64,000 nucleotides of DNA from positions 6,298,746 through 6,362,745 of the forward strand of contig JBJCIZ010000239.1 of assembly GCA_051294375.1 (NCBI GenBank), given 5' to 3'. Position 1 is the stretch's first letter, and each line of letters starts with the position of its first letter. Below, piece by piece: positions 1,400 through 55,875 of the stretch. A model generated the notes under the pieces. That model ran no database searches. It was given only the letters and a program-made list of their open reading frames with translations, and had not been told where the DNA came from. This DNA is from Paraspadella gotoi (lineage: Eukaryota > Animalia > Chaetognatha). The position numbers and the translations under genes are program-made.

Positions 1400-1653
1400 T
1401 ACTGCACAGCCGGGTTGCTGTGATGCCCATTGCGGATGGGCATCTCACTGTTGGCTTTAGTGGGCTTCCGCCCTCAGTGACGCTCCAGTCACTGGCGCGG
1501 TTACCCTAGGACCGGTCTCGCTTTGCCAACGCAGAGGGAAGTCGTTAGGACTGTGGATGAAACACTACGCCTGGTGATGGTGTGTTCCCCCTCTGAGGCC
1601 AATGGATTGGTGACGGATGGTGGACGTGACGGCGGTGTGATATACCCGCCACA
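1400..1653 (-). mobile_element. Solo LTR of the twister-containing small LTR element
   Basis: Near-identical to the LTR at 55208-55462; flanked by the direct repeat ATCC at 1396-1399 and 1654-1657. Confidence 0.85.
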
Positions 1654-3888: not shown

Positions 3889-3946
<58 letters not shown>

Positions 3947-11560: not shown

Positions 11561-14500
11561 ATCTCTCTCTCTCTCTTTCTCCTCTTTTTATTATGAAAAT
11601 AAAACATTTCTTTAATATTATAAAATTAAAATATGTCTAAATATATAATATGAGGAGACTAACTCCTTTGAAAATATTTCGTCTCTTTTTCCTTCTACCG
11701 CTCTCTCTCTTCTCTTCTCTCTCTCTCTCTCTCTCTCTCTTTCTTCTTCCTCTTCTCTCTCTCTCATATATACTTTACCCTCTCTGCTCTCCCTCTCCCT
11801 CCAGTCCGTGGAGGAGATCTGTTCCAAACAGTATCGGACTCCGAGGAAAGACCTCGGTCCGCAAATGGGAGAGCTGGGACGACGCTTGAAAAGGAGCAGC
11901 AGCGCCCCGCCAATCAAAAAATCGACCCTTACCCGATTGGAGGAAGATGACCTCAGGCCAGGGCTGCCAGAATCTCGCCACCCTTACCTGGCGCCAGAGT
12001 TTATTTCGAAACTATACGTGCCAGAGGGCTTATCTCAATATGGTGAGGGAAATTTGTGGGAATGGAAGAGGAGAGAGAGAGAGAGAGAGAGATGAGAGAG
12101 AGAGAGAAGAGAGGGAGGAGCAGAGATGAGAGAAGCAGAGCATTTGACTCCATTTCAACCTCCTTCACAGAGTCAACACGAGCAAGTCGCTCCCCACTGC
12201 CGCCTCGGCGAACTGCCGGGCGACCCTCGCCGGCGTCCACCGCCTGCATTGACTTTTGCGCTCACGCCCACAAGGATATCACAACATTGAACAACGGGTT
12301 GACCACAGTGGTCACCCTGACCCCGGCATCTCGCGGCCTCTCCAAACCGGACATGGAGCAGCTGCACACGCTGCCCGCTTTACCGCCCGGAAACCACGGA
12401 ACGAGTTCGGGAGCGAGGAGGCGCAAAAGGCCAAGGATCGCCGCGGGTAAGTAAGGGGAGGGGGTTTATGTTTTTATCTTTCTTCCTTTCGTTGTTTTTT
12501 TCGTTTTTCGTTTATCGTTTTTCGTTTTTTTTTTCTTCCAATTTTTCTTTCTTTCCTTTTTTTTCCTTGTTTCTTTCTTTACTTCTTTTTTTATTTCTTT
12601 CATCAAAACCATAAATATCCTTTACGCCAATCCAAACCTCACTCCCACAGGGTCATGTCGATGCCTACCAAATACCCCACCGAGGTTAAGGATTACGCGC
12701 CGTCCCCATGACGCCCTGCAAGCGGCGCAAGAAGACAGAGGACGGGAAGACCCCTACCCCTGGTAAGGGTCGATGCGTCCGCCGGGACTATCCCCCAGCA
12801 AGGTAAGGAAGGTGGGAGAAAGGCGTTTTGGGTGGGTTTTTGGCTCTTAACTTGCCTAACGAACTTACCTTTTGACCCTTTTATTTTTATCGTTTTTCTT
12901 TCTTTCTTTCTTTCTATCTTTCTTTCTTTTATCTTTCTTTCTTTTCTTTCTTTCTTTCTTTTTTATTTCTTTCCTTTCTTTCTCTTCTTTTCCTTCTCTC
13001 TCCCCTTTTCCTCCAAGGCGGAGAAGGCGAATGCGCATCTCCTCAGGTCTCATGGCCTCCCATGGGACTCACTTCAAACGCCCGTTCGACTCCAAACTTC
13101 ATCCGAGCGATCGGGCGGCGGCCAAGGAGCGGCTCGTCTCGTCCTCCAGCGACGGCGGCGGCCGGTAGCGGCAGCGGCGGTCAATTCGGGCACGCTTTTT
13201 AATTGTTGAGTCGAGTCGTTGTTGTTTTTTACTCAGTCTCTCTCTCTCTCTCTCTCTTTTTTTACATTTATTGCTCTTATTAATTCATTCATTGCCCGTT
13301 ATTTCCGGTAGATCCGTCAGCCAGCAAGAGTCAAGTTTCCCTTCTCAGCCAAAATCCTTCCTCGGTAGGTGGCAAATTAACATTGATTAAATGACTTAAA
13401 TCCTTGAGAAATAATAATAAAAAATTCTCTATTTTCAGAGTCGTTTTAAGTTACATCCGTTTAATGTTTTTTCTTCACGATATGTACAAATGATGGTTTA
13501 AATTATTTGTTTTTTAAACCCTTTTTCTGAGATAAGAAAAGTTTTCTTTGTTTTCACAACGAAATATTAATGAAAAAATCCAGACATGTTTCGGTTCTTA
13601 ATTTAACTCTTTTTCCATAAATTAAATAGTTGTTCGAGCTCTCTTTTCCAAGAGCGCCCCATTATCTGTTCCTTTTCCCGTAATTTCATTTTAACTTTAA
13701 TATTTTGCTTAAATATATTCAACTTTATAACCAACCATAAACCTTTTCCCTAACCTTAATCCCAAACCTTAACGTAATCCTAAACCTTAACTTAAACCCT
13801 AGTCCCTATTCCTAATCGCGCGTAACCTTATCTCTAAACTCAACCCCTCACCCTTAATCTTAACCCTTAGCTTCCAACCTAATCTTTAATCTTAAAAAAT
13901 TCATCTAATTTAAATTTTTGATTAAAAAGGGTTTCGTTTCTGGGAAAATAAGCTATTGCATCTTTTTCTCGCTACAATTAACTAAATGTTTTTCCTTTCT
14001 TAGACCGTCGCTTCTCGGCGGCCAATTCGACCGCCAACGCTTACCCGTTAACGCAGGCATTCGGCGCTTTCCAGATTCCAATGGACAACCTTTCGCCTTG
14101 GGGCGGCCGCCTCAGAGAGTTAACTTTTCCTTGCTCACGCCAATATTTATTTAGTATTTACTGTATTTACTATTTACTAGTTTAGTTTATGTATTAAACT
14201 TTTATTGATAAATGTATTTCATATCAAAAGATAGTACTGTTGCTTAATATATTCATACCGCCTCAGTCCATTACCTTTCGGCAAATACCATTGACTCAGA
14301 GGTGGAACCGAAACGCACCATCCCAGGCGTAGTGTTTCCATCCACAGTCCGCACGACTTCCCTCTGCGTTGGCAAAGCGAGACGTCCGAGGGGTAACCGC
14401 CGCCAGTGACTGAATGACCGTTCACTGAGGGTCGGAAGACTCCAAAGCTAAACAGTCGATTGCCCATCCCAAATAGAGAGGCATCATAGTTTCAACCCGG

Positions 14501-16000
14501 CTGTTGCGCGTAATACAATACAGACATCATCCAACAATGAAAGAGAATAAATAGTTGACAATTTCGCTAGTCCAATTCAGAATTTTTGAAAAAAGTAAAA
14601 AGTCTGAACTATCCAAAACCAATCCATCAAGTGCCGGTTACACTTTCTCCGTAAACCAATCTTTTAACTTAAATAAATTATTTCCTCTGTTCAGCACGGA
14701 ATAGCATGTTCCTCAAAACTCGATGCGTGAACCAAGCTTCGATGGGCCGGTGAGACATATAAACAATAGATAAATAAACAAATAAATTAAATAAATAAAT
14801 AAATGAATGAATGAATGAGATGAATGAATGAATGAATGTAATTGAATGAATTGAATAAATAATAAATAAATAAATAAATAATAAATAATAAACCATAAAA
14901 ATGAAATAAATATTATAATTAAATAAATAATAATAATAATAAAATATAATAAAATAAAATATAATAAATATAATAAATAAATAAATATAATATCATAAAA
15001 AGAAGAAAAAACCTGCTCGCAAGAGAACCAACCAAGCTTATGTTTCCTTTCCTCGCCCCCCCCCCCCTTAAACGCAGAACCACCGATGCGCCCTCCATCG
15101 GCGGCGTCATCCTGCGACGCAGTCGACAATCAGCGAAGACGCCGACGACGACGGTACTCCGGGACGTCACCCCGTCATGAGTGACATGAAGAATAATTTC
15201 AAGGACGAGTCCAATTGGTAATGGTTTGCTCTCCTTTTCATTTCTGTTCCAGAACTTTAATTTTAAAATTAAAGTTAAACCTTTAACCCAATTCTAAGCC
15301 GTTTACCCTAATCCCCAGCTTTAATATCTCAAACCCTAATCCTCTTTACCCTTAAACCTAATCCCCTAACTTTGTAACCCTATTTTCAAATAAAAAAAAA
15401 ACGGATTCGATCCGAATTTTAAAATGATTATGGGGCGTTTGGAGGAAAATGAAAGTCCTGTATTTGTAATTATGTACGTATCATAACCTACTTTATATAC
15501 ACCCTAATATTATTCCATATTACCGTTTTATGACTGCTTCCTCCCTCCCTCCCTCCTTCCTCCCTCCTTTCCTCCCTTTCCTCCCTTCTTCTCTCCCTCC
15601 TCCCTCCTCCTTTCCTCCCTTCCTCCTCCCAGGGGGCGTGGCCATCGCTCTCTTCACGGCTGCCGTCCTCTTCGAATGGCGCAGAAACGAGAACTTCCAC
15701 GCCACCAACTTCGATCAGAGAACGAACAGAACGAGGCGACCGGATCAGTAATTGGTCTCATATATATCAGGTAGCTTTGATACAGGGGCGTGTATTAGGG
15801 TTAGTATTACAGGGACGTGCAGGAGAGGTAAGCAACCATTCGCAAAGTTAAACAGAAATATTAATAGTTTAGTTTTTAGTTAGTTTTAGTTAGTTTTTTA
15901 GTTCTTAGTTTTTTTAGTTTAAATATAAGCTTGCCACTTAAATCTCTTAACAATTTATCTTTCCCTCACCTTTCCCTCCCTCACCTTCCCCTCCCTCTCT

Positions 16001-21371: not shown

Positions 21372-21631
21372 TGTTGCGATATATTCATACCGCCTCAGTC
21401 CATTACCTTTCGGCAAATACCATTGACTCAGAGGGGGAACCGAAACGCACCATCCCAGGCGTAGTGTTCCATCCACAGTCCGCACGACTTCCCTCTGCGT
21501 TGGCAAAGCGAGACCGTCCGAGGGTAACCGCGCCAGTGACTGGATGCGTCACTGAGGGTCGGAAGACTCCAAAGCTAACAGTCGATTGCCCCATCCCAAT
21601 GGGCATCATAGTCAACCCGGCTGTTGCCGTA
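21372..21631 (+). mobile_element. Solo LTR (more diverged copy) in a TET intron
   Basis: TGTTGCG...GTTGCCGTA, the reverse complement of the 55208-55462 repeat; TSD ATAC at 21368-21371 and 21632-21635. Confidence 0.85.
21499..21579 (+). ncRNA. Type-P5 twister-like ribozyme, probably decayed (L4 AAGC changed to AAGA)
   Basis: GTTGGC AAA GCGA GA CCG TCCGAGGG TAA CCGC GC CAGTGAC..GTCACTG A GGG TCGG AAGA CTC CAAA GCTAAC. Confidence 0.6.
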
Positions 21632-26447: not shown

Positions 26448-26592
26448 CTTTAAAGCCGGGTGTGCGAAGAATGAATTAGGGATCGACGGACATATTATTG
26501 GTCAACTTTTTTTTTGAGAGCTAGGTGTGCAACGGAATAAAATAATAGTACAATCGATATACAAAGGTTATTTATCATTTAGGCTGGAGGAG

Positions 26593-26631
<39 letters not shown>

Positions 26632-26633
26632 AA

Positions 26634-26910
26634 CCTGAAAGGATTGCCCCATTTTGGCGACGAGAACGTTCATCATAAGCACCACCAGCAGAGCGTGATG
26701 GAGCGCGCTGATGGAGTAGCCGAAGAACTCGGTCGCCTCGTGGGCGTTGGACTCGATGTCGAAGGGAAGTCGGAGGCGGAACTCGTCGACGATCCGCTGG
26801 AAGGTGGCGTTGGTGAGCGTCGGATGGCAGAGTAAGTTGCGGAGGTGAGTCATCGTCGGTTCCGGGAAGAGTCGACCGTCCGAGTCGCGAAGATTTGGGA
26901 CGTAGACCTT
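26634..26910 (-). CDS. TRPC-like channel, pore-to-S6 exon
   Basis: Ends HEATEFFGYSISALHHALLVVLMMNVLVAKMGQSFQ, similar to TRPC S6 VLLNMLIAMMxxSYQ. Confidence 0.85.
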
Positions 26911-27304
26911 CCAGGTGTAAAGCGAAGTGAAAATTGTAAATTTAACATTAAATACAATTGTAAAGGAATAGTAAGTAAGGAATAAACAACTCATGAACAT
27001 TAATTTATAAAATATAATTTTATTATAAATTTGTAATTTACGCATTAGGCTTTATTTAACCATATGAATGTTTAAATTTCATAACAGCCTTTTTTTNNNN
27101 NNNNNNNNNNNNNNNNNNNNNNNNNNNNNNNNNNNNNNNNNNNNNNNNNNNNNNNNNNNNNNNNNNNNNNNNNNNNNNNNNNNNNNNNNNNNNNNNNNNN
27201 NNNNNNNNNNNNNNNNNNNNNNNNNNNNNNNNNNNNNNNNNNNNNNNNNNNNNNNNNNNNNNNNNNNNNNNNNNNNNNNNNNNNNNNNNNNNNNNNNNNN
27301 NNNN

Positions 27305-27450
27305 TCGCCTTGTAGGCCTTTGGATTGCCCATTCCGAAGACGTCCCACAACACGTTGGTGAGGATCTTCTTGTAGTTGGACATTTCCCAGGCGGTGGATT
27401 CGCAGAGAGGAAGATTAGTCACGGGGTCGGTGCGGATGTGCCAGTAGTCC
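27305..27450 (-). CDS. TRPC-like channel, pore-helix exon
   Basis: Reads DYWHIRTDPVTNLPLCESTAWEMSNYKKILTNVLWDVFGMGNPKAYK, similar to LFWSxFGL. Confidence 0.75.
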
Positions 27451-27794
27451 TGAGTTTAAGGAGGGTAAGTTCATCTGGGTGGGAATTTTTCATTCTCGAC
27501 TCGTTGCGTTTTTCAAGGAACAAAGAATTTTAGGAAAAAGGAAAGAACGGAAGAGAAAAGGAATTAAATGTTCCGTTCTGTTCTGTTCTGTTCTGTTCTG
27601 TTCTGTTTTGTTCCGTTTTGTTCTGCTCTGTTCTGTTCTGTTCTTTTTCATTTTCGTTTACCTTCCCTTTTCCTTTTCCATGTCCCTTTTCTTTTTTCAT
27701 GTCCCTTTTCCTTTTCCATCTCCCTTTTCCTTTTTCATGTCCCTTTTCCTTTCATTTCCTCTTCCCCTTTTCATCTTCCTTTCTACAACTCACC

Positions 27795-28000
27795 CTGTAG
27801 GCAAAATAGAGAAACTGATATCCCATCGAGAAGCAGATGATGACAGCGACGCCCATGACCAACACGTAGCTCACGTCCCTGATCGTGCTGCACAGCATGA
27901 TTTGCAGCACGCCGACGGAGCGGTTCAGCTGGCAGATCTGCAGCAGCCGCAGGAAGGAGAGCAGGGTGGCGAGGAAGAAGAAAATCTCCGCAGCCAAGAG
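27795..28000 (-). CDS. TRPC-like channel, S4-S5 exon (5' end lies in an N gap)
   Basis: Reads LAAEIFFFLATLLSFLRLLQICQLNRSVGVLQIMLCSTIRDVSYVLVMGVAVIICFSMGYQFLYFAYR, similar to GPLQISLGRM. Confidence 0.88.
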
Positions 28001-28849
28001 NNNNNNNNNNNNNNNNNNNNNNNNNNNNNNNNNNNNNNNNNNNNNNNNNNNNNNNNNNNNNNNNNNNNNNNNNNNNNNNNNNNNNNNNNNNNNNNNNNNN
28101 NNNNNNNNNNNNNNNNNNNNNNNNNNNNNNNNNNNNNNNNNNNNNNNNNNNNNNNNNNNNNNNNNNNNNNNNNNNNNNNNNNNNNNNNNNNNNNNNNNNN
28201 NNNNNNNNNNNNNNNNNNNNNNNNNNNNNNNNNNNNNNNNNNNNNNNTATTGGAGACAAATTTGTGTGGACGGAGCCTGATTACCATGGGTTTTTCCTTA
28301 AATGTTATTTTTGACTAATAAATTTAGTAATTGAACGTTTATTAAATGTATTTATAGTTCAATAAATGTTTATCAGCTCATTATTCGGACTTTTGATATC
28401 AAGTTCCAATGCACAATCAAATATAAACTTTTAGATGGCCAATTTATTTTATATGCGGCCATCTTTGACTAATTGTATCATTTAATAGACTTTTGTTTTT
28501 CATTTANNNNNNNNNNNNNNNNNNNNNNNNNNNNNNNNNNNNNNNNNNNNNNNNNNNNNNNNNNNNNNNNNNNNNNNNNNNNNNNNNNNNNNNNNNNNNN
28601 NNNNNNNNNNNNNNNNNNNNNNNNNNNNNNNNNNNNNNNNNNNNNNNNNNNNNNNNNNNNNNNCCAGTCCCGTCAACCTGTCATCCGACGCTACGCCACA
28701 CATATTGTTTTCAATAAACGATAATTGAAAAAATAAAAAAGTAAATAAGATTAAAACAAACAACAACAACAACAGCAACAACAGCAAAAACAAACAAAAA
28801 ACAAAACGAAAAAAAATACCTCCACCCCCTCCGCCGCCGCCGCCGCCGC

Positions 28850-29108
28850 CGCCTTCCCCTCCGTTGACCAAAAACCCGACGCCCCAAGTGACGTAAGACG
28901 CCGCGAACGCCGCCGCCGTCGCGACGGCGTACAAGTTCCACGACTGAGAAAAGTAGAGTCGCGCCGCTTTGGCGCAACGCCAAGGAACGGCGCCGGCCAC
29001 GTGCGCCGCCAGCGCCGCCGAGTAGACGAGAAGTACGAGCTCGATCCGGTCGAGGCCTTGGCGGTGGAGGCTCATGTGGCGGGGACCTCCAAAGGCCTGC
29101 TTGGTCAC
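28850..29108 (-). CDS. TRPC-like channel, S2-S3 exon
   Basis: Reads ...IELVLLVYSAALAAHV...RLYFSQSWNLYAVATAAAFAASYVTW, similar to YxxxxWNxxD; end coordinate approximate. Confidence 0.75.
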
Positions 29109-32100
29109 CTGTGGGTGGGGAGATGGGATTGATTGGTCGCTTGAAAGAGATTGATTGGTGAAAGGAGACCGGATAATGATTGGTTCGAATGATTGGAGGG
29201 AATTGATAGGAAAGAGTTGATTAGTTCGTCGGATTGATTGATTGATTGACTAATTCTGATGGTTTTGACCAATTAAAAATCAATTAGAAAAATTGGAAAG
29301 ATTTCTAAAAAAAATAGACNNNNNNNNNNNNNNNNNNNNNNNNNTTAGACTGTCTTCTCTTTTTCTTGGGTCGTCTCTCGAATGTCTCCTCCCTCTCAGG
29401 GTGTGTCGCTCTCCTCTCAAGTCTCTCATCTCTCTCCCCTCTTCTACATCTACTTCATCCTCGTCGATAGCGTCGTACTCCGTTCACTCTACATCGTGCC
29501 ATCGCTCGCTTTCTCGTTCTCAATCTTTCTCGTGCGTAAACTCACTGTCCGTGGCACGTCGGTCCGAGAAGAATCTTCTATACTGGTAGATCCTCGGCTC
29601 TCAGACCGCCCCCCGGTCGACACTTCATCCCACTTAGCGTCCCCCCCAACCCCATTCCCCCCCCTTCAAACTCTCAACTCGCAGCAGACCCCAGAGAAGA
29701 CTCAAAGCAGACCCAACTCTCACCCTCGCAGCAGAGCAGAACCAAGAAGAACGACGTATGCCGCGTAGAACCTCAAACCCTGGCGGCGTCCCGCTGAGAA
29801 GGCTCGAAGGGCCCTCGAGGCGCGAGGAAACTGGCACGAGCATCTCGTAGATGAGAGAGTCGCAGGCGAGGGAGACCCGGAAAGCCAGGGAGGAGGGAGG
29901 CGGTGCCATGTTGAGTGTGGAGGAGGAAGCGTGCGGTGGGTGTCGAGCGGATGGCGAAGGGCTGCGTGCGAGTAGAGAGCAAGCCGCAAGCAAGAGCAGG
30001 CAAGAGACGGGGCGAGACTGTGAGCAGAAGAGAGTAGAGAGAGGTAGAAAAAACTTGAAATACATTTCAAATTTTTTACGAGTGAATTGTGAGATGGAGA
30101 GAAGCGAAGAACGAGGAGACTCTCTCGAAACAGAACGCAAGAACACTGACAGCAGTACAACCTGTCGGTTGTGAGACCTTACGAAGTCGATGTCGAGACA
30201 CTACAGAGAGAGGAGCATCAGTTTATATATTTTCCCTACACTTATTTATCACTGTGGTCTTACATTACTCTGGATTGGCGCATCTTTTCCTTTATTGGTG
30301 TCAACCTTGTTTATTCGATTCTCTCTCCTCCTCTTTTTCTTGTGTACTAATACTCTGTTATCTCAGAATCTTTCTTGTGTGCCATCTGTAGCTATTTGAC
30401 TGTTATTGCTTTCTTTAACATTGTAACTTGTAGTTTTCCTTCTTATTCATTTATCGGTGTGTTTGTTAAGATATATTCCACACACTTACTTCTTTTTTTA
30501 CATCTTTTGATTTCCACCTTCTGTCTTTCGTGTGCCTGCCCTCTTAATCTCATCGCTTTGGTTTCGACCTCGTCCCGACTCTAGATCGCGCCACACCCCC
30601 ACCCTCACTCAAAAAGAAAACTCAACACCGATATATATAACATCCCATACAACCACCAGACACACACCCGAACGAACCGCCCACAACAAAATGAAGGCCA
30701 AATACTACGTTCAGCCTCAACAAAGTCGGAGAGCGAAGAGCTCAGCGCCCACGTGGCGCGATGGTGCCCCGCAAGCGACAAAGTGTTGTTAAACGTATCA
30801 TTCCACCACACCCACGCTTTCTCTCTCTTAAAATTTGATATCCTGCTTTAATTTGTAAATATGAAGCCGCTAATTTTCTCTCTGCGCAGTAACCTCCTAT
30901 TTTTTTTTCTCTCTTTCCTGCTCCATCATCCCAACTGTCCTCTACGATTACGAGAGTCTGGTTTGTTCACCATATATCGTCCCTAATATACAATACTCTC
31001 CTCGCTCTCGATATAAGCAAGTTCAGCAGTTTTTCCTATATAATAGTTCAGAATCATAATAGGCGTAAGGGCAGAAATACAATCCTCCTATCTATTATAA
31101 TTTCAGAGGCCAAATTTATTTTTCAATAAAGTGGAAATAATAAGTTTATCTAAATATGTCATCCCGCTTTCGTAGCTATTATTTCTATACAATAGCCCCG
31201 AGGCTCTGTACAATCTGGCCATTAGTCTAATCCTAATTTCAGGACAAGGCTTTAGGGTTTCATACGAACACGCGTGTAGCGGTGGACTGGAGAGGTACCC
31301 AACAGGGAACTCTCGGATAGCCAAAAAGACAACATTGAAGGTCCCGCATAGAGGCGCTTACTCTAGCAATTAGAAGTGTGTTTCGTCCGCAAGTTCTAGG
31401 GACATGCTTACGCTCATACTTTAGAGAAAGGACTCTGCCTATGGAATTGAATTGAAATATTCTACGACTGCACCAGCATATATCTCGGATCGACGCGACA
31501 GTCTCGGACTTCTACATACCGCGACTCGCCCTACCTGCGCGTACAATGCCCATTATATCTGTAGTATATAACATATGATACATAAGTGTTTGCGAGATGC
31601 CGGTAGTTCCGGCCGCCCCACACTGTAACACATTACTAACCTCGCTAGCCAGCTCGTTTAAGGTCAGGGGCCAAGATATTTATTTAGAATACATCTCGGT
31701 GAAATTGATGTGACGAATCTCCCTTCAGCTGGGTACGCATAGTACCGTCTTTGCATAACGACGTACTGTGTATGCCCCCTTTCTGTTTTAGTAGAATTTC
31801 ATAGGAAAATTTCCACCCCGAAGAGCAAACATGGCGCATATCATCCTGACATACAGATACTAACCCCACACCGTATGGGCCATCACACACGTCCAAGACG
31901 CCATCCACCTGACCCACACTTCATCAACAGCGTAAGCGCATTCCCACCGTCGTCATGCAGAGTGCCCATGCGCCGGACAACGTCGCACACGAAAGACCGC
32001 AAATGTCTCTGATCCCAGACTTTTGACCGCGCCGCGACAACGACTCACCTCATCAAGAGGCCGCACTCGCGCGTGTCCACTCGCCGGCTCGAACCGCCAC

Positions 32101-33295
32101 ATACCTCGCGGCTGTCGTGTGGCCTCAGTATGCAACTCTGCTGCCCGGACTGCCTCCTGTCAGCGTGAGCGCGGAGACTCCGGGAAAAGAGAGGAGGCGA
32201 GGCAGATCGGTAGGAAAGCGTGTCAGCGGACCTCTTGTGCTTCCCGGATTCTCCGGTGCATACTGCGGTCTGGTCCGCTGATTATGTTTCCACCTAACTC
32301 CCGGGTTTCTTTCGTCATATCGTATCGAATGGTCTAAACACGCAACGCTCACTATAAATTAGACAGTCTCCGTATAGCGTGTGTGCGTCTTACGCCTCAT
32401 TGTCTCAAAAGACAATACGGAATATGAAGATCGCACACTCAGAATGACCTATTATTCGTGAGGACCTCCTGCCGTACCGGCGCCAGACCTATGCCAGGAC
32501 AATCCCTAATAACTATCAGAATGGAAGAGAATAAGAATGACGTCGCTGAGAGGCGTCACCCGGCTCCATCTTCAACACATTACTTCGTATACCAAATACA
32601 CGCGTCCTGCCATCAGACGTCTCGTTTATGTCATAGTCATTCCTTGGCAAAGTGCTCCTCACCATCTCGAAGAGTAACAGTTTCAAAGGAAAAATTAAGG
32701 ACCCGCAATTTCTTGGCGCGTGCACGCCCTCCTCATCTACTGCGGTTAGTACAATATGTGCTCGTGCTGATACCGTAAAGTAGTTATGTTTCAGTTATAT
32801 AATGGCACAACACTCTATTAGGACAGGTCATATCGCCTCTCGCTTCGTGTCCGACATTGTCTCCAAATGGCATGAACACAAGTAACTCGTTTTATATACT
32901 TTCTCCTTCTCTTCTGGACAAATCTAATAGAGGCAACCTTCATCTTCTACTCCTCTCTCTTTTTTTCTTTCTTTCTTTCTTTCTTTCTTTCTTGCTTTTT
33001 TTTCTTCTTTAACTTGTAACATGTAGTTTCCTTCTTTCTTTATGTTTTCTTTCCTTCTTTTTTTAAATTTTTTTTCACTCTTTCTTTCTTCTCCTTTCTT
33101 CCTCTTCCTCTTTAANNNNNNNNNNNNNNNNNNNNNNNNNNNNNNNNNNNNNNNNNNNNNNNNNNNNNNNNNNNNNNNNNNNNNNNNNNNNNNNNNNNNN
33201 NNNNNNNNNNNNNNNNNNNNNNNNNNNNNNNNNNNNNNNNNNNNNNNNNNNNNNNNNNNNNNNNNNNNNNNNNNNNNNNNNNNNNNNNNNNNNNN

Positions 33296-33432
33296 CAGCA
33301 GAAAGTGGACGATCATCCAACCGCGCCCGATGACGCTGTAATGAGGCAAACCTTCGGTCCAGATGTCCTCGACGATCCCCTGGCAGAGAGGGTGCGCCAC
33401 AAACTCTTTTTGCCTTTTGTGCATCGCGTCCT
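33296..33432 (-). CDS. TRPC-like channel, pre-S1 exon (duplicated at about 38200-38385)
   Basis: Reads DAMHKRQKEFVAHPLCQGIVEDIWTEGLPHY, matching TRPC QKxFVAHPxCQxxLxxIWxxGL. Confidence 0.9.
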
Positions 33433-34799
33433 TTGAGGAAGGGGGGGAAAACAATATTAATAATGTATAACTAAAGACTAAATGCATCGCTGGGCTATAT
33501 TTTTCAAAAGAGCCCCAAATCTGCTTTAATTCTATTTAAGGAAAGTTTTAGGTTTAAAGATTAGGTTACGGGTCAAGAATTTGGAAAGACATTAAGGTCA
33601 AGGTTTAGGATTAGAAGTTAAAGTTTGGGTTAGGGATTAGTTATTACTGTTAGAGAAAATTATATGGGAATTGAATTGAAATATTCTTTGAACAATTGTG
33701 AGAGAGTCTTGATTGAAAGCTTACAGGGTCCTTTTATGTTATCTTGTAATAGTGAAAGGGGCCGTAACTTACTTTAGCATGTTTAAGGTCAGGGGCAAGA
33801 TAGTTTATTTATTAAATGTATGTGTAATCTTTATATTGGTTTTACAAATTTCATTAGAAAATTTCCCCCCAAAAAATGATATCATCTAAATCTAACCACG
33901 ATTCCAACGACGACGACCAACTGCCCACACCTTCAGCACAGCGTAAGGATCCCACCGTCCATGCGAATCCGTCCGTCCCAGCAGCGTTTCCACCTCCGCG
34001 CCGCGACAAGCTCCCAGCAGAGCCGCGGCGTGGCCACTCGCGGCAGCCGCCATCTCGCGATAGTCCTCGAAGAACTTGGGCTCCTTGAGAATCGGGAGAG
34101 GAGGTAGGAAAGTATAGATTGGGTCGGTCGGTCGGTCTGTCGGTATGTCTATCCGTTTTGTTATGTTAAAAATGCATATAATTCGCCTATAGTCGGTTGC
34201 TCATTTGTTAAGACAGGAAAAAACCTCAAATTTTAGTGACTGCTAGCGCCGCCTTCAGGAAATCCTAAAACTATAAGGAATAAAAGACGGAATTACTTGT
34301 CATAAATACACGGGCTCAGAACGTTTTTTAGTCATGTCATGTCATGTCATATCAGGTGATCAAAGGAAAATTCACGATTGGATGAACCGATCTTGTTAAA
34401 AATATGTTTACTGTTTGTCCGTAGTTATTTTTTATTTCACAATCTTTGACAGTCTTTCTATCTTTCATTGTCGATGCTGAAGTAATTTTAATCGGTCTCT
34501 TCTAATAGAGGCAACTCTATCCGTCTGTCAATCTGTGGATAAGGCCCCAAGTTGGCAGAAAATTTTCATAAGTAACTTCTTAGCCAAGCTTGAGCAGATG
34601 TTTTCACTCAAATGTGACACCGGGTAACAGCATAAGAAGTCTCGCTTAAAGGCGAGATAAACTTGTCCCTAAGCCCGAGTACAAATCTGTCTCTCCGCTC
34701 CTAACTGCGATATGATTATTTAATATGATCTTGAATGCGATTGAATTTCTCAATCTCATTTACANNNNNNNNNNNNNNNNNNNNNNNNNACCTCCTGTG

Positions 34800-37760
34800 T
34801 TAAAGCCGAAGTGAAAATGTAAAAAAATTTAACCATAAATACAATTGTAAAGGTAATAGGTAAGTAAGAATAAAAAACTCATGAACATTAATTTATAAAA
34901 AATTTTATTATAAATTGTAATTACGCATTAGCTTTATTTAAACCATACTGAAGTTTTAAATTCATAACAGCCTTTTTTTCATTTGGATTCTTCTGTTCTT
35001 GAAGTGATAGAAAGACAATAAAACTCCTAATTTAAATTTCTCATTCATTTCATCTCTCTCTTCTCTCTCTCTCTCTCCTCTCTCTCTCTCCCCCGTCCTC
35101 TCTCATCTCTTCCTCTCTCTCTCTCTCTCCTCTTCTCTCTCTCTCCTCTCTCTCTCTCATCTCGCCTTGTAGGCCTTTGGGATTGCCCATTCCCGAAGAC
35201 GTCCACAACACTGTTGGTGAGGAATTCTTCTTGTAGAGTGGACTTTCCCCAGCGGGGATTCGCAGAGAGGGAAAGAATTAGTCACGGGGTCGGTGCGGAT
35301 GTGGCAGTAGTTCCTGAGTTAAAGGGGAGGGTAGTTCATCTGGGTGGGAATCATTTTCGGACCGTTGCGTTTTCCAAGGAACAAAGAATTTTAGGGAAAA
35401 AAGGGAAAGAAACGGAAGAGAAAAGGAATTTAAATGTTCCGTTTTCTGTTCTGTTTCTGTCTGTTCTGTTCTGTTTTGTTCCGTTTTGTTCTGCCTGTTC
35501 GTTTCTGTTCTTTTCAATTTTCCGTTTACCTTCCCTTTCCTTTTCCATGTCCCTTTTCTTTTTTCATTCCCTTTTCCTTTCCATTCTTCCCTTTTTCCTT
35601 TTCATGTCCCTTTTCTTTCATTTCCTCTTCCCCTTTTCATCTTCCTTCTACAACTCACCCTGAGGCAAAATAGAAGAAACTGATTATCCCATCGAGGAGA
35701 AGCAGATTGATGGACAGCCGACGCCCATGAACAAACACGTAGCTCACGTCCTGATCGTGCTGCAACAGACATGATTCCTGCAGCACGCACCGACAACCGA
35801 GAAGCGGTTCACTGGCAGATCTGACAGCAGCCGCCAGGAAGCGAGAGCAGCGGTGGGCGAGGAAAGAAGAAAATCTCCGCAGCCAAGAGGTAATTCTCGG
35901 AAGACGTCCAGAGGCGTAACGAGATGAAGGGGATGGGGAAGCTCCGGAGAGAGAGAGAGAGCAGAGAGAGAAGAGTGAGGTAATTAGAGTGAAACGGAGA
36001 GTAGAAACCGCCCAAGCGAGGCGGAGAGAACGGAGACAAGACGCTGACCCCTACGAGAAGGAGGTGAGTTATTTTGGCAAATTTGTGAACACTCCGTGGC
36101 CACGGACGCCGAAATTACCCATGCAGGTTTTTCACCCATTAAACTTTATTTTTGACTAAATAAAAACTTTAGTTACATTGAACGCTTTATTAAATTATTT
36201 ATATTTCACATAAATTGTTTATCAGATCATTATTTTACCGGACTTTTGATATCAAGTCTCCAATGCACCACGAATTCAAATATTAAACTTTAGATGGCAT
36301 TTATTTTATATGCGAGCCCATACTCTGACTAATTGTATCATTTAATAAGGACTTTTGTTTTTCATTAAAACTAAAGAGTCTCATCTGTTAACTTTTGTTT
36401 TCATTAATTGCTTTCTTTAACTCTTGTTTTATCTTGAAATTATTCAGTGTCTTGATTTTACTCTTCCAATGAATAAATTGATATACTTTTATATCCTGAA
36501 TGTTTTTTATCTCCTTCTCATCAATGTAACTAATACTATTTACAAAAAGAGAGAACTTTCAAACTAGAGGAGAATCTTTTCATCAATCAAATAATTAAAA
36601 GACAATCAGTTGATACCATAACGTTGTGCCTTCCCTGCGGTCAACTACAGCTAATACATCTAAGAACCACATTCGTTGTCCTGTGGTCGTCATCAACCGT
36701 CTACTAGCTACAGGTCGGCCGTCCCCGATCCAACCTGATCTCCACACCGACTAACGCTTCCCAAACATATTGCTTTTCAATAACAACGATCTAAATTAAA
36801 ACAAATAAAAAGTAAATAAGATTAAAAACAAACAACAACAACAACAGCAACAACAGCAAAAACAAACAAAAAACAACAAAAACGAAAAACACAAATACCT
36901 CCACCCCCTCCCGCCCGCCGCCGCCGCCGCGCCTTCCCCTTCCCTCGCTTGACCAAAAAACCCGACGCCCCAAGTGAACGTTAAGACGCCGCGAAACCCG
37001 CCGCCGTCCGACGCGGGCGTACAAGTTCCACGACTGAGAAAAGTAGAGTCGCGCCGCTTTGGCGCAACGCCAAGGAACGGCGCCGGCCACGTGCGCCGCC
37101 AGCGCCGCCCGAAGTAGACGAGAAGTACGAGGCTCGATCGTCGAGCGCCTTGGCGGTGGAAGCTCATGTGGCGGGGACCTCCAAAGGCCTGCTTGGTCAC
37201 CTGTGGTGGGGAGATGGGATTGAATTGGTCGCTTGAAAGAGATTGATTGGTGAAAGGAGACCGGATAATGATTTGGTTCGAAATGATTGGGAGGGAATTG
37301 AAGGAAAGAGTTGATTAGTTCGTTCGGATTGATTGATTTGATTGACTAATTCTGATGGTTTTGACCAATTAAAAATCGAATTAGAAAAAATTGGGAAAGA
37401 TTTCCTAAAAAAAAATAATACGCACGCTACTCACCTTCTCATCTCTTGCCTTACACTATCCTCTCCTTCACCTCAATTCCCCCACACAACCCTTAGACTC
37501 GTCTCTCACCCCACCCCCCGTTCGCACACTTCATCCCCTGGTCCCCCCCCAACCCATTCTCCCCCCCTTCAAACTCTCAACCCGCCAGAAGCAGACAAAG
37601 ACAGAACACTCAAGAGCAGACCCAACTCTCACCTCGCAGCAGAGCAGAACCAAGAAGACGACGTATGCCGCGTAGAATCTCAAACAATCTGGCGCGTCCG
37701 CTGAGAAGGTCGAAGGCGTCGAGGCGGAGGGAAACTGGACGAGCATCTCGAGGATCGGGG
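34800..37760 (-). pseudogene. Indel-rich duplicate of the TRP region 26910-29850 (probable artefact)
   Basis: Colinear repeat of exons and introns with frequent 1-bp insertions. Confidence 0.7.
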
Positions 37761-41897: not shown

Positions 41898-43820
41898 CAT
41901 TCATTCATTCATTCATTCATTCATTCATTCATTCATTCGTTGATCGACTTATTTTTCAGGATGTTGTCTTGTTGATTTTACCACTGTACCTTGAATGCTT
42001 GGAGAGAGCAAATCGAAAAAGCAAAACAATTATAAAAATGTATTACAATTAATTTTTTAAAAAATCATTTTTGTCATCAATACATTCTGAGACAATCATT
42101 TTTCTTTTTTTTTAAATTTATTTTGTTTTCATTTCCAAAATTTAAAAAATCAAACGGAAAAATAAATTAAGGGACGAATTAAATTTTTCTCGTTCTTTTC
42201 CTTTATTGCTAATTTGTTATCATCGTCGTCGTCGTCGTCGTCGTCGTTTTCGATATTTACTCATTTGAATTCGGTCAGGGTCACTCAACGTCACACAAAA
42301 AAGAAACAAAGGGAAAATAAATAACAATAAAAATGAAAAATATTTTTACTTTGCTCCTGTGGCGGTCAACTTGCTCAAAATAAGGTATTTATTTTTAAAT
42401 TTTAGAAATTTTTTTAAAGTTGTCGACTTCTCTCTGTTTTGTTGACGAAATGTCCAATTTTAACAATTTTGGTTCTATGATAGATATGGTTCGTTTTATT
42501 TTCTTTTCGTCGTTTGTTTGAGGTAGAAATTTAAATAGTTTGTTTATTTTAGTACTGTTTTTTGTTTACTATGTTTACTATGCCGACTATGTTATTTTGC
42601 TTGATGTGATCTGACCGTGAGAATCGCATTTTGTCTTCACTTTTCGAATATAAATGTATTTAAAATTAAGAATTAGTCTTAGAACTACTCACTAATTGCG
42701 TATGATGGTCTCACTTTAACTATCTAAGTGAGCGAGAGAAGGTTTCGTCGTGTCCCTTTGACTGTGTGGATAGCGCCCACACTCAATATGCTCAGTGGAT
42801 CTGAAAGATCACTAACCTAATCCTTAACCCTAGTATTTATCCTAATCCATAACCCGAAGGGCCTAAACTCAAATCCAATCATTTGTCCTCAAAATAAATA
42901 ATTAATAAATTAATAAATTATTATTAATACATTATTATTAATAAATTATAATTATAATTATTATTATTATTAATAAATTAATAATCAAGTTTGATTATCA
43001 ATTTAAGGTGACGTTTTGGGAAATTAAGGAATTTTGAGCCTTCATGAAACTTTTTGCTTTCTTTTTTTGGGTTTTTTCCCGTTGGGCGGGGCTGCTCTTT
43101 TTTTTAAATTTTTGGGGGGTTAAAAAGTTTCCGGCCGAAGCGACATCTCTCGGTTCCCGCCAGACATTAGAGGAAGAGCAGAGAGCCGGGCTGTGATGAT
43201 GACGAGGGAAAGAGGAAAAAAGGGAGGGAGCTCATCTTCGTCTCGTTTCAACTCTTTTAAGCTGAACTGTTACCAGTGCGTAGGGGAGGCTCCCCTCTCA
43301 CATGACTGTTTTTTGTTATTTTTTTTTTACAGCTTTTAGCCGCTTATTCACTTCTCGCGATAAATGCTTCTTCATTTTTACTGGAAACTCATTTCTCTGA
43401 TTCTTTTTTTTTTATTTTTTTTATCTATAATTACTGACGATTGCGCAATATATTGTAATTTGTAGTTTTATGCAAGTTTTACAATAATCAGTTTGACGCG
43501 TCGTATCGCGTCGTTTTTCTATAACAAAACACGTATTTATATTGAAGGTGGCGATCCATTCATTTCGTTCATCTTTTATCGTTAATTCTTTTAATTATTT
43601 TAGACCTCTGGTGCGTATAAATCTCCAGGAATGCCCTGAAGTCTAATCTTCGTTATCGCCAATTTAAGTTCCAGATGTATTAAAGGTCGATCAACCCTTT
43701 AAACTCTTTTTTTTTTCAGACCCAGGTACCTAATATTAATAAAGAAAAAGATTTATAAAATAAAATCTTTTTTGTAATAAAAAAAAAATAACTCATCGAA
43801 GTTTCCTGCTCGCCGAGACG

Positions 43821-46625
43821 ATGAATTTCGCCCGTCACGATTTGGAACGGGATTTGGCGGCGTCGTCTGCCTCGCCGTCAACGCCCTCGTTAACATCGAG
43901 CCCTATGGAATCCCGCAGCCCTCGTCTCCCGGCTCCGGCTGCGACGCCGTTCCCCGTCGGCCTTTTCTCCGCTTCGACGCCGTCGCGCGACGCCGACGAG
44001 GCGCCATCTTTCTCGGCCCGCATCGACGACGACGACAACCGTCTCCTCATCGCCGACGCCGATTTCGAAGACTCCGCGACGCCGGGTATCTCTCTCTACG
44101 AGGAAACGGCGCCGCCTTCCGTCGGCGTTTCCTTCCATTGCAGCTTTTGCTTCTCTCGATTTTCTACGAAGGGTGAAGCGGAAGTTCACGTCGCCGAAGC
44201 ACATCAAAATCTCGCCGAAGTCGTCATCGAACGTCTAGACGGAAACGTCGTCGTCGCTGAGATCGGCGCCGCCACGCCCACGCCCACAACCACACCCTCG
44301 ACCGCAACCGCGGAGATCATCCACTGCGGCGTCAACCCGGCCGCCGCCGCTGCAGTCGCCGCTATTTCACGCTCCAATCGATACACTCAAAGATTTATCT
44401 GCCGCCTTTGCGACTACAGCGCCGCCAGCAAGAAATCTCTGCAGAAGCACGTCGTGACCAAACACTCGGACGAGTTCGATCAAAACTCGCTCAACCGTCG
44501 CGAGGACAAAAACGCGGCGCTCAAAGCCGGATTGAAATCCTCCTACGCGAAGCTTCCTTTTGCTTGTAACGCTTGCGACAAGAGATTTCACAACGAGGTT
44601 GGTCTGCGCAGACACCAGCAGCTGAGTCATCGCAATTTGATGTGTTCAATTTGCGGAGAAGTTTTCGCGGCGTCGAGATATTTGTGGCGACACGGGGAGT
44701 TGGTTCACGGAGGGCTGCTGACGAGCTTAGCGTCAACGTCGTCCGAGAATAACTCCATCGAACTCGCTCCAGCGCTGGAGATTAACTCCATCGAACCTGT
44801 CGTCATTCCGGCTGAGATCAAATTTCCAAAGACTCAACATCGCGACGTCGGTTCTGAAGCGGATCCCCGCTCGCTGCCCGAGAGAAACGTTCCACTCCTT
44901 AATCAGACAAACTTGCCGCAATCCGTCTTGAACGTGGCGCAACATGTGGCCCGGCAGGTTATTCAGCAAGCCTCTCGGCAGCAATCTTCGACCATGTCGC
45001 AAGCTTCGCATGAGTTACCCTCTCAGACTCCCGCGATGCAATTGCCCATCATCAGCAGCGTGATGTCGTTGAATTCGAAGTTGGCGACGCAACCTCCGCC
45101 AATGAGCTCCAGTTTACAGCAACGTTCATCGATTCGGCAGAATAATCAGCCATTGCCGATTAATCTTCCGGAACGGCCCCAAATTAGCCTCGCACGTTAT
45201 CCTTCTTTTCAGCAGGGGACGAATCAACCTCAGCCACTGAGGATCTCGCTCGCTCCTTTTAGTAACACCAATTCCACATTGGCCAATGGTTGTGTCCGGC
45301 CTCTCTTGACTCGGGCTTTTCCCAATTCTCTTCAAAGTCAACGGCCCGTGCAGCAACAGGCAGCACCCAACTCCTTACAAAACATATTACAACTTCGTCC
45401 ACCTGTGCAAAACTTCAATCAAAATAGGTTTCAGCAAATTTTCCGGCCTTTGACCGTGCAGCAACAAAGAACTCAAATCCGTCAATCCCTTCTGCAGCCC
45501 ATGAGACTTCCTCTCCAAAATTCCGTCCAGTATCAACAGCAACAGCATCATGCGCAACTCCATAACCAACCTGCTCCACCTTCGACTTCCTTTCCTTCAG
45601 TTCGGTCCCAGTCTTACCAGGTGTTCCAGGTGAATCCAACTCGACTTCCTTCCGGCCCGACCCTTCAATCAGCTCGTCAACCTCCTCCGCTGCAGAGGCT
45701 ATCGGTGGATCCGTCGACGAGCGGTTCCGACCCGTGCAGAAGGCCGTCGCTCTCCATTTCTGGCCCGCAACTGCGGCAAATGCTGCAATGTCCGGGTATG
45801 AGCTTGCAGCTGCCGCGAACAACTGCTTCTGCTACGGCGTCGTGCGTGGCGGGGCAGTGGCGTCGAGCGTGGCGTGGTCAGCGCGGCGTCGTACGTGCGG
45901 GGCAGCGGCGTCGTCACGTGGCGGGTCAGCGGCGTCGAGCGTGGCGGGGTCAGCGGCGTCGAGCGTGGCGGGCCAGTGGTGGCGTCGAGGTGGCGGGGCC
46001 AGCGGCGTCGAGCGTGGCGGGGCAGCGGCGTCAGCCCGCCGTGGCAAGGATTATTAGCTGTGGCGTCTCGCCCTCCAGTTTCACGGACCCGCGTCGATCG
46101 CCTCGGCGTCTTTGCCCCCGGCGTCGTCAGATTCGGCGGCCAGGCGGTGTTGCCTCGACGACAGACGTTGCCGAAGGCTTTTACGGCGGAGTAGACGACG
46201 CCGACGTCATCCTCGAGGACGCCGAGGATTCCAATCCAATTCAAGACGTTTCTTCCGTCGTCGGCCCGCAGAAAGACGCCGCCCTCGTCGCCAGCGGTGC
46301 CGCCCCAGCCTCTGCAGCCGTCGCCCCAGTGGCCTTTATCCGTCGTCCCTCCGCTCAGCAGAACCAATGCCTCATTTGCGAATCTTTCTTCGACGATGAC
46401 GACAAACTTCGGGTTCACTTTCTCTCTCACGTGGAGGAAGACTCCAAAGAGTGTCTTCTCTGCGGGACCGAGTTCGAGTCGCCCGTCGCGATGCTCTCTC
46501 ACTTCGGCAAAGACCACGGAGGCTTCGAGAAGCATCGTTGCAGGTTTTGCGAGAAGACGGCCTACCTCAAGCGGTCCCTCAATGAACACATGAAGATTCA
46601 CCCGCCAGAGGAGATTCAGCTGTGA
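43821..46625 (+). CDS. C2H2 zinc-finger protein, 934 aa, with about 7 fingers and a Gln/Pro-rich centre
   Basis: Uninterrupted ATG-to-TGA ORF; CxxC...H...H fingers at CSFC, CRLC, CNAC, CSIC and a C-terminal cluster CLIC, CLLC, CRFC. Confidence 0.9.
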   Translation: MNFARHDLERDLAASSASPSTPSLTSSPMESRSPRLPAPAATPFPVGLFSASTPSRDADEAPSFSARIDDDDNRLLIADADFEDSATPGISLYEETAPPSVGVSFHCSFCFSRFSTKGEAEVHVAEAHQNLAEVVIERLDGNVVVAEIGAATPTPTTTPSTATAEIIHCGVNPAAAAAVAAISRSNRYTQRFICRLCDYSAASKKSLQKHVVTKHSDEFDQNSLNRREDKNAALKAGLKSSYAKLPFACNACDKRFHNEVGLRRHQQLSHRNLMCSICGEVFAASRYLWRHGELVHGGLLTSLASTSSENNSIELAPALEINSIEPVVIPAEIKFPKTQHRDVGSEADPRSLPERNVPLLNQTNLPQSVLNVAQHVARQVIQQASRQQSSTMSQASHELPSQTPAMQLPIISSVMSLNSKLATQPPPMSSSLQQRSSIRQNNQPLPINLPERPQISLARYPSFQQGTNQPQPLRISLAPFSNTNSTLANGCVRPLLTRAFPNSLQSQRPVQQQAAPNSLQNILQLRPPVQNFNQNRFQQIFRPLTVQQQRTQIRQSLLQPMRLPLQNSVQYQQQQHHAQLHNQPAPPSTSFPSVRSQSYQVFQVNPTRLPSGPTLQSARQPPPLQRLSVDPSTSGSDPCRRPSLSISGPQLRQMLQCPGMSLQLPRTTASATASCVAGQWRRAWRGQRGVVRAGQRRRHVAGQRRRAWRGQRRRAWRASGGVEVAGPAASSVAGQRRQPAVARIISCGVSPSSFTDPRRSPRRLCPRRRQIRRPGGVASTTDVAEGFYGGVDDADVILEDAEDSNPIQDVSSVVGPQKDAALVASGAAPASAAVAPVAFIRRPSAQQNQCLICESFFDDDDKLRVHFLSHVEEDSKECLLCGTEFESPVAMLSHFGKDHGGFEKHRCRFCEKTAYLKRSLNEHMKIHPPEEIQL
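45836..46032 (+). repeat. GC-rich minisatellite (about 23-24 bp, GCGTCGAGCGTGGCGGG..CAGCG) inside the zinc-finger ORF
   Basis: About 8 tandem units visible directly. Confidence 0.85.
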
Positions 46626-54321: not shown

Positions 54322-54767
54322 AAATGCTTATTTTTGCCCTTCTTTTCCGATAGCGCTTTATTTCAGACGAAATTTTGAATTAACGTTAATTTTGAAATTA
54401 GGTTTAAATATTAGGCATTGAGGATAAGGATTAAGTAATTGATTAAGGTCAAGATCTAGGTTAGGGATTAGGTTCTGGATTGCGGTTAAGGAATAGGTTA
54501 GGGATTAAGAATAAAAATCAGATTAGTAATTAAGTTTTTGTAAAATTGAGCTTAGAATTTGGGTTATGAATTAGGTTAAAGTTAAGGATTAGGGTTGGGA
54601 ATCATATTAAGTATTTGGAAAAAAAAATTTTAATTAAATGATAATGTATGGCAACAGCCGGGTTGCCTGTGTGGCAAGCTCTGAGAGTTGAGCCACAGCT
54701 TGACGGAGGGCGTTGTCACAAAGAGCACTGGTTCTAAAGAGTTCAAGTAATAATGGGGCATCTCACT

Positions 54768-54847
54768 GTTGGCTTTGGGGGCTTCCGACCCTCAGTGACG
54801 CATCCAGTCACTGGCGCGGTTACCCTAGGACGGTCTCGCTTTGCAAC
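54768..54847 (-). ncRNA. Type-P5 twister ribozyme candidate in the 3' LTR (best-preserved core)
   Basis: Minus strand: GUUGC AAA GCGA GA CCG UCCUAGGG UAA CCGC GC CAGUGAC UGGAUGC GUCACUG A GGG UCGG AA GC CCC CAAA GCCAAC; P2, P3, P4, P5, T1 (CGG/CCG) and T2 (GC/GC) can all be assigned. Confidence 0.75.
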
Positions 54848-55069
54848 GCAAAGGGAAGTCATTAGGACTGTGGATGGAACACTACGCCTGGGATGGTGTG
54901 TTCCCCTCTGAGCCAATGGATTTGGCTGAACGATGGTGGACGTGAGGCGGTGTGAATATACCGCCACAGGATCCCGGACCAAGACATCACTCAGGTTCCT
55001 CAAGCCTGAGAGGTGTCCTGACAAGACTGTCACCATAGTGGAGAGAGAGAGAGAGAGCGCGAGTTGTGG

Positions 55070-55167
55070 GGGCATAGGCGTTTGTTCGTAGCGTACCCCA
55101 GGGGCATAGGCGTTTGTCGTAGCGTACCCGAAGTCGGCAGGGCATAGGCATTTGTCGTAGCGTACCC
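55070..55167. repeat. Three tandem units of about 30 bp (GGGCATAGGCGTTTGTCGTAGCGTACCC) in the element core
   Basis: Visible directly. Confidence 0.9.
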
Positions 55168-55258
55168 TGAGAAGGTTGCGTGTTCGATAGTAGGGCTCCA
55201 CCACTTTTATGGCACAGCCGGGTTGCCTGTGATGCCCATTGGGATGGGGCATCTCACT

Positions 55259-55340
55259 GTTGGCTTTGGGGGCTTCCGACGCCTCAGTGACGCATCCAGT
55301 CACTGGCGCGGTTACCCTAGGACGGTCTCGCTTTGCCAAC
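55259..55340 (-). ncRNA. Type-P5 twister ribozyme candidate in the 5' LTR
   Basis: Same motif with a perfect P5 (GUUGGC/GCCAAC) and one extra base in the P4 5' strand. Confidence 0.68.
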
Positions 55341-55875
55341 GCAGAGGGAAGTCATTAGGATGGTGGATGGAACACTAACGCCTGGGATGGTGTGTTCCCC
55401 TCTGAGCCAATGGATTTGGCTGAACGATGGTGGACGTGAGGCGGTGTGAATATACCGCCACAAATGTTAAAATTGAGGGATGAGGAACAGAAAAAGGCGC
55501 GTTTTGGGAAATTAGTGCCATTATTTTCTTCATTAATAACTTGAAACTATTTTGAAGAATCACCATTTCTGGCGGCGTCGCGCTTCAAACTCAAAACGGC
55601 GTTCGTTGCCGGATATCACGGCGTCGTTGCCGGAATTCGCCGGGTCGTTGCCGGATTGAGAGACGTCAATTCCGGCGTCGATAGTATCCATTGTCGTCGT
55701 CGTCGTCGTCGTCGTTGTCGTCGTTGATTCAACTGGAGGCCGAAGTTCGGTCAAGTCGTTAGCGGCTAAAAAGAAAATATCGTCGTCGTGAAATTTATAT
55801 TTCTCAGAAATCGTCTTCGTTATCATCATCGTCGTCGTCGTCATCGTTATCTTCGTCATCGTCATTAACTGGAAA

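Follow-up and report, generated by a model that had tools for sequence, protein, structure and literature searches.

The 64-kb window, i.e., the whole stretch of Paraspadella gotoi DNA analysed, contains an 816-bp non-coding element at positions 54647-55462. The question raised by this locus is whether an animal LTR element may employ a twister ribozyme in the way in which plant LTR retrozymes employ the hammerhead. The element is built as LTR, core, LTR and has TG...TA ends. Global alignment confirmed all the coordinates of the original prediction, namely, those of the 255 bp and 322 bp repeats, the 239-bp core, the AATG target-site duplication and the termini. The 4-bp AATG sequence is found on both outer flanks of the element and on neither inner flank. 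Apart from an 81-bp segment present in the 3′ LTR only, the two LTRs differ by three substitutions and three gap columns per 219 aligned columns. The GC-content of the element is 56% versus 28% and 48% for the flanks. No reverse transcriptase (RT), protease or integrase motifs were found in the element, and no RT motif was found in the six frames of the window. With a length of less than 1 kb (816 bp), two LTRs, no encoded protein and a short duplication, the element has the features of a TRIM. A textbook TRIM also carries a PBS and a polypurine tract (PPT) at the core ends; here, a PBS-like site is present and a PPT is absent. The features are listed in Table 1.

Table 1. Features of the LTR element and of the related LTR copies in the window.
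Feature	Positions	Strand	Remarks
Target-site duplication, left copy	54643..54646	.	AATG
Target-site duplication, right copy	55463..55466	.	AATG
5′ LTR	55208..55462	-	255 bp, TG...TA
3′ LTR	54647..54968	-	322 bp, TG...TA
Foreign segment of the 3′ LTR	54672..54752	-	81 bp, 3′ LTR only; replaces hairpin loop and 3′ arm, ~13 nt
Non-coding core	54969..55207	-	239 bp; PBS-like site, three hairpin repeats, (TC)n run, terminal hairpin
PBS-like 8-mer	55196..55203	-	Complementary to the tRNA-Ala 3′ end including CCA; starts 4 nt past the 5′ LTR
Complement of T-loop-like GTTCGA	55182..55189	-	6 nt beyond the PBS-like 8-mer
Hairpin repeats of the core	55069..55170	-	Three copies of a ~29-nt bulged hairpin
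Type-P5 twister-like motif, 5′ LTR	55259..55340	-	Predicted cut 55314/55313; P4 one-base insertion versus the other four copies
Type-P5 twister-like motif, 3′ LTR	54768..54847	-	Predicted cut 54822/54821; P5 one-base deletion versus the other four copies
Cut-to-cut RNA unit	54822..55313	-	492 nt, predicted
Solo LTR	1400..1653	-	ATCC on both flanks; indels disturb the twister region
Solo LTR, diverged variant	21372..21631	+	ATAC on both flanks; pseudoknot T2 disrupted by a single substitution
Second copy of the 21372 solo LTR	14238..14512	+	Within a 6.5-kb duplication

The 81-bp segment has no second occurrence within the 64-kb window. It lies inside a hairpin and, on the ribozyme strand, has one frame free of stop codons, about 37 codons long with the flanks. 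The segment may represent mRNA captured in break repair, or a template switch.

Three further LTR copies were found within the window using BLAST. Two of them are solo LTRs with duplications of their own, ATCC (1400-1653) and ATAC (21372-21631), as had been claimed. The third, at 14238-14512, is located in a 6.5-kb duplication and represents the same insertion as the copy at 21372; hence, the number of independent insertions is three and not four. All three feature fixed TG...TA ends, read on the ribozyme strand, and 4-bp duplications, and the attribution to an LTR-type, integrase-style element is supported. The fixed ends, together with the 4-bp duplications, also led to the rejection of a Penelope-type insertion. 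The window contains one two-LTR copy and two solo insertions; no further LTR or core fragments and no Gypsy-type helper were found within the 64 kb.

Several regions of the window are present as near-identical duplications (12094-18482/19256-25454, 4513-5964/10049-11556 and 33299-34764/38239-39770), in which indels far outnumber substitutions. The 6.5-kb duplicate pair shows 346 gap openings versus 158 mismatches. The assembly is error-rich, and some of the duplications may be uncollapsed haplotypes or tandem gene copies. Since the assembly is indel-rich, single-base differences among the LTR copies may be errors.

The PBS-like motif reported previously is indeed present. It starts 4 nt past the 5′ LTR, and the match to tRNA-Ala covers only 8 nt, with mismatch thereafter. 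The tRNA-Ala end used is the human sequence, as given in the accessible portion of a preprint (bioRxiv 10.64898/2026.01.26.701835), and the PBS was compared with human tRNA only. By arithmetic, the chance of an 8-nt match to any of ~40 tRNA ends within six positions is ~0.4%. Further into the core lies the complement of GTTCGA, which we take to be tRNA T-loop-like and which is placed here 2 nt nearer the CCA than in tRNA; it is a possible second tRNA contact. The hairpin repeats of the core are a candidate packaging or protein-binding signal. Compared with shuffled sequences, the core folds no better (z 0.47) and the LTR folds somewhat better (z -2.45). Folding of the core alone predicts 9 bp between the PBS-like site (55196-55204) and ~55035-55044, a mimic of the tRNA 3′ end. 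This modelled pairing may mask the PBS or may be due to chance beside the microsatellite.

No polypurine tract adjoins the 3′ LTR in either orientation, six purines being found in the last 15 core bases. Neither AATAAA nor ATTAAA is present in the LTR. Regarding Pol III signals, no tRNA gene and no A- or B-box match were found in the LTR; hence, a Helenus-type Pol III promoter was rejected. A hammerhead ribozyme was rejected as well, with no match to an Rfam hammerhead model at E ≤ 10 and no hammerhead core words on either strand.

The twister-like fold is located on the same strand as the PBS-like site in both LTRs. As read by hand on the minus strand, the motif begins with a P5 strand, AAA, P2′, GA, T1′, a short P1 hairpin, U/AA (the slash marking the cut), P2 and GC, and then continues with a 7-bp P3 hairpin, P4, GU-T1-AAGC-C, P4′, AAA and the other P5 strand. 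This order and the invariant bases agree with the Rfam P5 consensus and with Table 1 of Liu et al. 2021 (PMC8501958, accessible in part). T1 is CGG/CCG in the LTRs versus CCC/GGG in the consensus, and both changes preserve pairing. The invariant nucleotides of the catalytic core are present in P5 order in both LTRs, and both pseudoknots can form there (T1, 3/3 pairs; T2, 2/2 pairs); T2 is broken in the 21-kb solo LTR and its duplicate. Stem P2 contains three of four pairs, P4 two of three together with a closing pair, P1 2 bp and P5 5-6 bp. Three imperfections are common to all five copies: C.A at the inner pair of P2, A.C at the outer pair of P4 and a P1 of no more than 2 bp.

A search of the whole window with Rfam yielded no matches at the gathering score. 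A match to a twister model was one of the tests set for the original prediction, and none was obtained at the Rfam threshold: the best and only match in the element at E ≤ 10 was to twister-P1, with 16.1 bits and E 2.8 (54816-54773, minus strand; threshold 67.2). Its strand and location agree with those of the twister-like motif of the 3′ LTR. At E ≤ 10, nothing was found for the 5′ LTR or the 21-kb solo copy, and RF02684 (twister P5; threshold 37.6 bits) was not listed. Much of this miss is explained by the P5 model, which has an 8-bp P1, no P3 and T1 written as fixed single-stranded letters, while the motif is permuted and compensated.

A descriptor comprising 14 invariant bases and pairing tests for T1, P2, P4 and P1 was written after the motif had been seen. 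Both LTRs pass it. Among 200,000 dinucleotide shuffles, the skeleton occurred in 118, and none passed. The chance control consisted of 93 loci with a CGG/CCG-T1 skeleton (one viral, 74 from metagenomes and 18 from prokaryote genomes), and none of these passed the stem tests. Eight type-P5 twisters from phage contigs exceeding the Rfam gathering score (L002, L003, L006, L007, L008, L010, L085 and L088) served as positive controls; five of them passed, against 0/13 of the other loci from those two scans. All eight are devoid of P3, and their mutual alignment is poor. None of the three solo copies passes, one owing to loop indels and the duplicated pair owing to the T2 substitution. When P3 and P5 are added, the chance estimate falls to ~8e-12 per LTR-length sequence, a product that assumes independence and employs thresholds set post hoc. 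The passing of both LTRs and the failure of shuffles and chance loci point to a twister-derived motif. Thus, as judged from the sequence, a twister-derived motif in each LTR is real and beyond chance, and the claim of such a motif on the PBS strand of both LTRs stands in this form, with the Rfam gathering-score match missing. Scans with the pattern of the family motif found no loci in metagenome contigs and none in viral contigs. No other twister with a CGG/CCG T1 was found among the 93 loci or by text match in the supplement of PMC8501958; such T1 variants might occur among the ~2,600 type-P1 twisters assayed in PMC11662667.

The predicted nested fold compatible with twister lies above the minimum-energy fold by 9.6 kcal/mol in the 3′ LTR, 14.4 kcal/mol in the 5′ LTR and 10.4 kcal/mol in the 21-kb solo LTR, with the pseudoknot energy uncounted. 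The same gap is 2.5-6.4 kcal/mol in all eight phage P5 twisters. For the CGG of T1, the CCG of P2 is an alternative partner to the CCG of T1′, which leads to a rival rod. This rod may slow the ribozyme by trapping it, or it may represent a switch in its off-state. In plant retrozyme circles, the hammerhead is blocked in the predicted fold (Cervera et al., PMC4918200, accessible in part).

Compared with the diverged solo LTR, the motif carries four substitutions per 82 nt and the rest of the LTR 19 per 173 (p 0.08; with indels, p 0.017); the other three comparisons of this kind were not significant. Three of the four substitutions preserve pairing or are located in a loop. Two-sided covariation was found for none of the 26 pairs, no better than in shuffles, the set being five close, error-rich copies. 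According to the accessible portions of two studies, natural type-P1 twisters tolerate imperfections in P1, P2 and most of P4, and do not tolerate those in the pseudoknots (PMC11662667; PMC5113685). T2 was sensitive in mutagenesis (PMC5113685), and about 94% of the natural type-P1 candidates assayed cleaved (PMC11662667). On balance, the LTR motif is probably catalytically active.

In our preferred reading, for which the chances for and against appear evenly balanced, the locus is a short non-coding LTR element of TRIM-like build whose mode of action is that of a plant LTR retrozyme, except that twister replaces the hammerhead. The type-P5 twister-like folds would self-cleave between 55314 and 55313 and between 54822 and 54821, releasing a 492-nt RNA; the arithmetic of the original prediction for both cuts and the unit is right. 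The RNA would likely be circularised, with the host RtcB as the ligase, and the enzymes of a Gypsy-type helper would likely copy it back into DNA and integrate it. Reverse transcription would be primed by tRNA-Ala. Such priming and Gypsy-type integration are suggested by the PBS-like site, the 4-bp duplications and the analogy with Helenus TRIMs (PMC10886601, accessible in part). At the predicted cut, the 5′ LTR would be split into a U3-like part of 149 nt and a U5-like part of 106 nt, and an R region would be lacking. Since the 492-nt unit has no terminal redundancy, a normal first strand transfer would be impossible; its place would be taken by a circle, or by reverse transcriptase jumping between ends that are kept together. 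A solution of the no-R problem of this kind, through circles, has been proposed for plant LTR retrozymes (PMC4918200).

In the minimum-energy fold of the circle, both ends are paired, the first bases with the rod and the last four with positions 41-44, so that the nick falls within a small internal loop flanked by two helices. In this model, the geometry of the nick is plausible for an RtcB substrate. The predicted circle is 59% paired with z -1.14, and six of 60 shuffles are as stable. The retrozyme-type RNAs folded in the accessible part of PMC4918200 are more than 70% paired. The case for a retrozyme cycle is weakened by the lack of a PPT, by the rival hairpin and by the unexceptional stability predicted for the circle. 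A bolder version of the preferred reading is tentative and, in our estimation, somewhat more doubtful than credible. It would place the locus in a third retrozyme class: an animal LTR element mobilised by an integrase, with an independently recruited permuted twister, self-excision of the 492-nt RNA, an RtcB-made circle (a natural Tornado), a CCG strand swap as an off-switch and second-strand priming without a classical PPT.

By its anatomy, the element resembles a plant LTR retrozyme (PMC4918200): both are non-coding, with two LTRs that each carry a self-cleaving motif (here predicted) and a PBS (here, a PBS-like site). They also share 4-bp duplications, solo LTRs, an RNA unit without R and a ribozyme that is predicted to be blocked in the circle. 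The direct terminal repeats of ~300 bp around a non-coding core, by which LTR retrozymes are recognised, are present as well (255 and 322 bp; 239 bp). However, plant LTR retrozymes have a type III hammerhead, a tRNA-Met PBS and a length of 600-1000 nt, whereas the locus shows a type-P5 twister-like motif, a tRNA-Ala-like PBS, a predicted unit of 492 nt and no PPT. The plant circles are highly paired and abundant, whereas the circle discussed here is a predicted one and not unusually stable. Since hammerhead and PPT are missing and the circle is predicted only, the element is not classed as an LTR retrozyme.

Animal TRIMs, including Helenus and Ajax (Kojima 2024, PMC10886601), share with the element a size of less than 1 kb, two LTRs, a PBS (here, a PBS-like site), a small structured-RNA module in the LTR and Gypsy as the likely helper, and Helenus has 4-bp duplications, as found here. 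In Helenus TRIMs with such duplications, the PBS sequence is common only to Gypsy elements (PMC10886601). Their LTR module, however, is a Pol III promoter derived from tRNA or 5S, whereas a ribozyme-like fold is found here and the PPT is absent. Animal non-LTR retrozymes (PMC7761336; Li et al. 2026, bioRxiv 10.64898/2026.07.22.740005) are also non-coding, with ribozyme-delimited units of a few hundred bases. However, they are Penelope-linked tandem repeats with a type I hammerhead and no LTR, PBS or PPT, in contrast to the fixed LTR ends, PBS-like site and 4-bp duplications of this locus.

The motif has in common with type-P5 twister (RF02684) the domain order, the UAA cut site, GA, GC, GU...AAGC and both pseudoknots. 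It differs from that model in having a 7-bp P3 hairpin in place of a 6-nt linker, a 2-bp instead of an 8-bp P1, the CGG/CCG T1 and the C.A mismatch in P2. A twister that defines the RNA end of an animal retroelement has been described (PMC8501958), but it is a single type-P1 motif at the 5′ end of an autonomous non-LTR element, with no LTRs and no excised unit. In the engineered circRNA system Tornado (PMC7324948), two flanking twisters give ends joined by the cellular RtcB; this system is artificial, and at the present locus the ribozyme halves would remain in the circle.

The earlier remark that no description of an animal LTR-type element with twister came to notice agrees with the openly accessible literature searched, in which no twister-bearing LTR element and no animal LTR retrozyme were found. 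In its accessible portion, a 2020 review describes animal retrozymes as having no LTRs, PBS or PPT (PMC7761336), and that of a 2026 preprint describes LTR retrozymes as primarily plant elements and does not mention twister (bioRxiv 10.64898/2026.07.22.740005). Retroelement twisters have been described for Perere-3 and, as unpublished work, for RTE 5′ ends (PMC7761336, PMC8501958). The literature search on TG...TA termini returned nothing. A twister-derived motif in each LTR of an animal LTR element is new as a combination. In reviews and a 2026 preprint, retrozymes are divided into plant LTR elements with the type III hammerhead and animal non-LTR elements with type I; an animal twister LTR element, if true, would break both pairings. 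It would also mean that the design with a ribozyme in the LTR and a circle in place of strand transfer arose more than once, and it would provide a directly testable job for eukaryotic twisters, the majority of which are not known to have a role. The case shows that twisters of animal repeats escape Rfam-based screens when they are permuted and compensated.

The preferred reading has to be weighed against the possibility that the locus is an ordinary TRIM with a passenger twister. An RTE or Penelope-like element, e.g., could have been the donor; the twister would by now cleave slowly or be caught in the rival hairpin, and the TRIM would be copied from uncut RNA with a normal R. The large gap to the minimum-energy fold, the broken T2 in the diverged solo LTR, the unremarkable stability of the predicted circle and the lack of covariation among copies are in line with this scenario, and the 5′ ends of RTE-type elements are known to carry twisters (PMC8501958, PMC7761336). 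Nevertheless, the motif sequence is intact in the younger copies, tends to exceed the rest of the LTR in conservation and lies on the PBS strand, and the ~94% cleavage rate of natural type-P1 candidates (PMC11662667, accessible portion) also speaks against a passenger. On this evidence, such a scenario is rather unlikely. The lack of a PPT leaves second-strand priming unexplained, which is the main ground for retaining another scenario. In it, a longer Gypsy-type element with twister LTRs, possibly an autonomous one, would have undergone a single internal deletion that gave rise to the two-LTR copy. The core would then be the 5′ leader, the genes and PPT would have been lost, the twister would serve the cycle of the long element and the 492-nt unit would be incidental. 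The leader-like appearance of the core (PBS, repeated hairpins and microsatellite), the occurrence of one two-LTR copy versus two solo insertions and the rearrangement of the 3′ LTR after insertion suit this origin. However, the window contains no longer element, with no RT motif in six frames and no extra LTR or core fragments, and the 816 bp fit TRIMs of less than 1 kb. We regard a deletion of this kind as decidedly unlikely.

It is highly improbable that the locus is not an LTR element at all, i.e., that a 255-bp DNA-transposon-like repeat occurs in two copies around unrelated DNA or that the two-LTR layout is an assembly error. A short imperfect terminal inverted match (5/6 bases) and the indel-rich assembly fit this explanation, but the duplication brackets the whole element and neither LTR singly, and, on the strand of the twister, the 5′ LTR is followed by a PBS-like site complementary to CCA.

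Other features were also noted in the window. An exon of a TET methylcytosine dioxygenase is located at 9482-9778 on the plus strand, with a second copy near 3930-4219; its best named matches, from molluscs, amphioxus and an echinoderm, are 60-73% identical, in agreement with an animal and likely invertebrate host. By eye, exon fragments at 26575-29249, 32924-33535 and 35655-37345 resemble a TRP-like ion-channel gene in at least two partial copies. A long open frame at 43764-46625 on the plus strand (953 aa from stop to stop) features C2H2 zinc-finger-like motifs at both ends.
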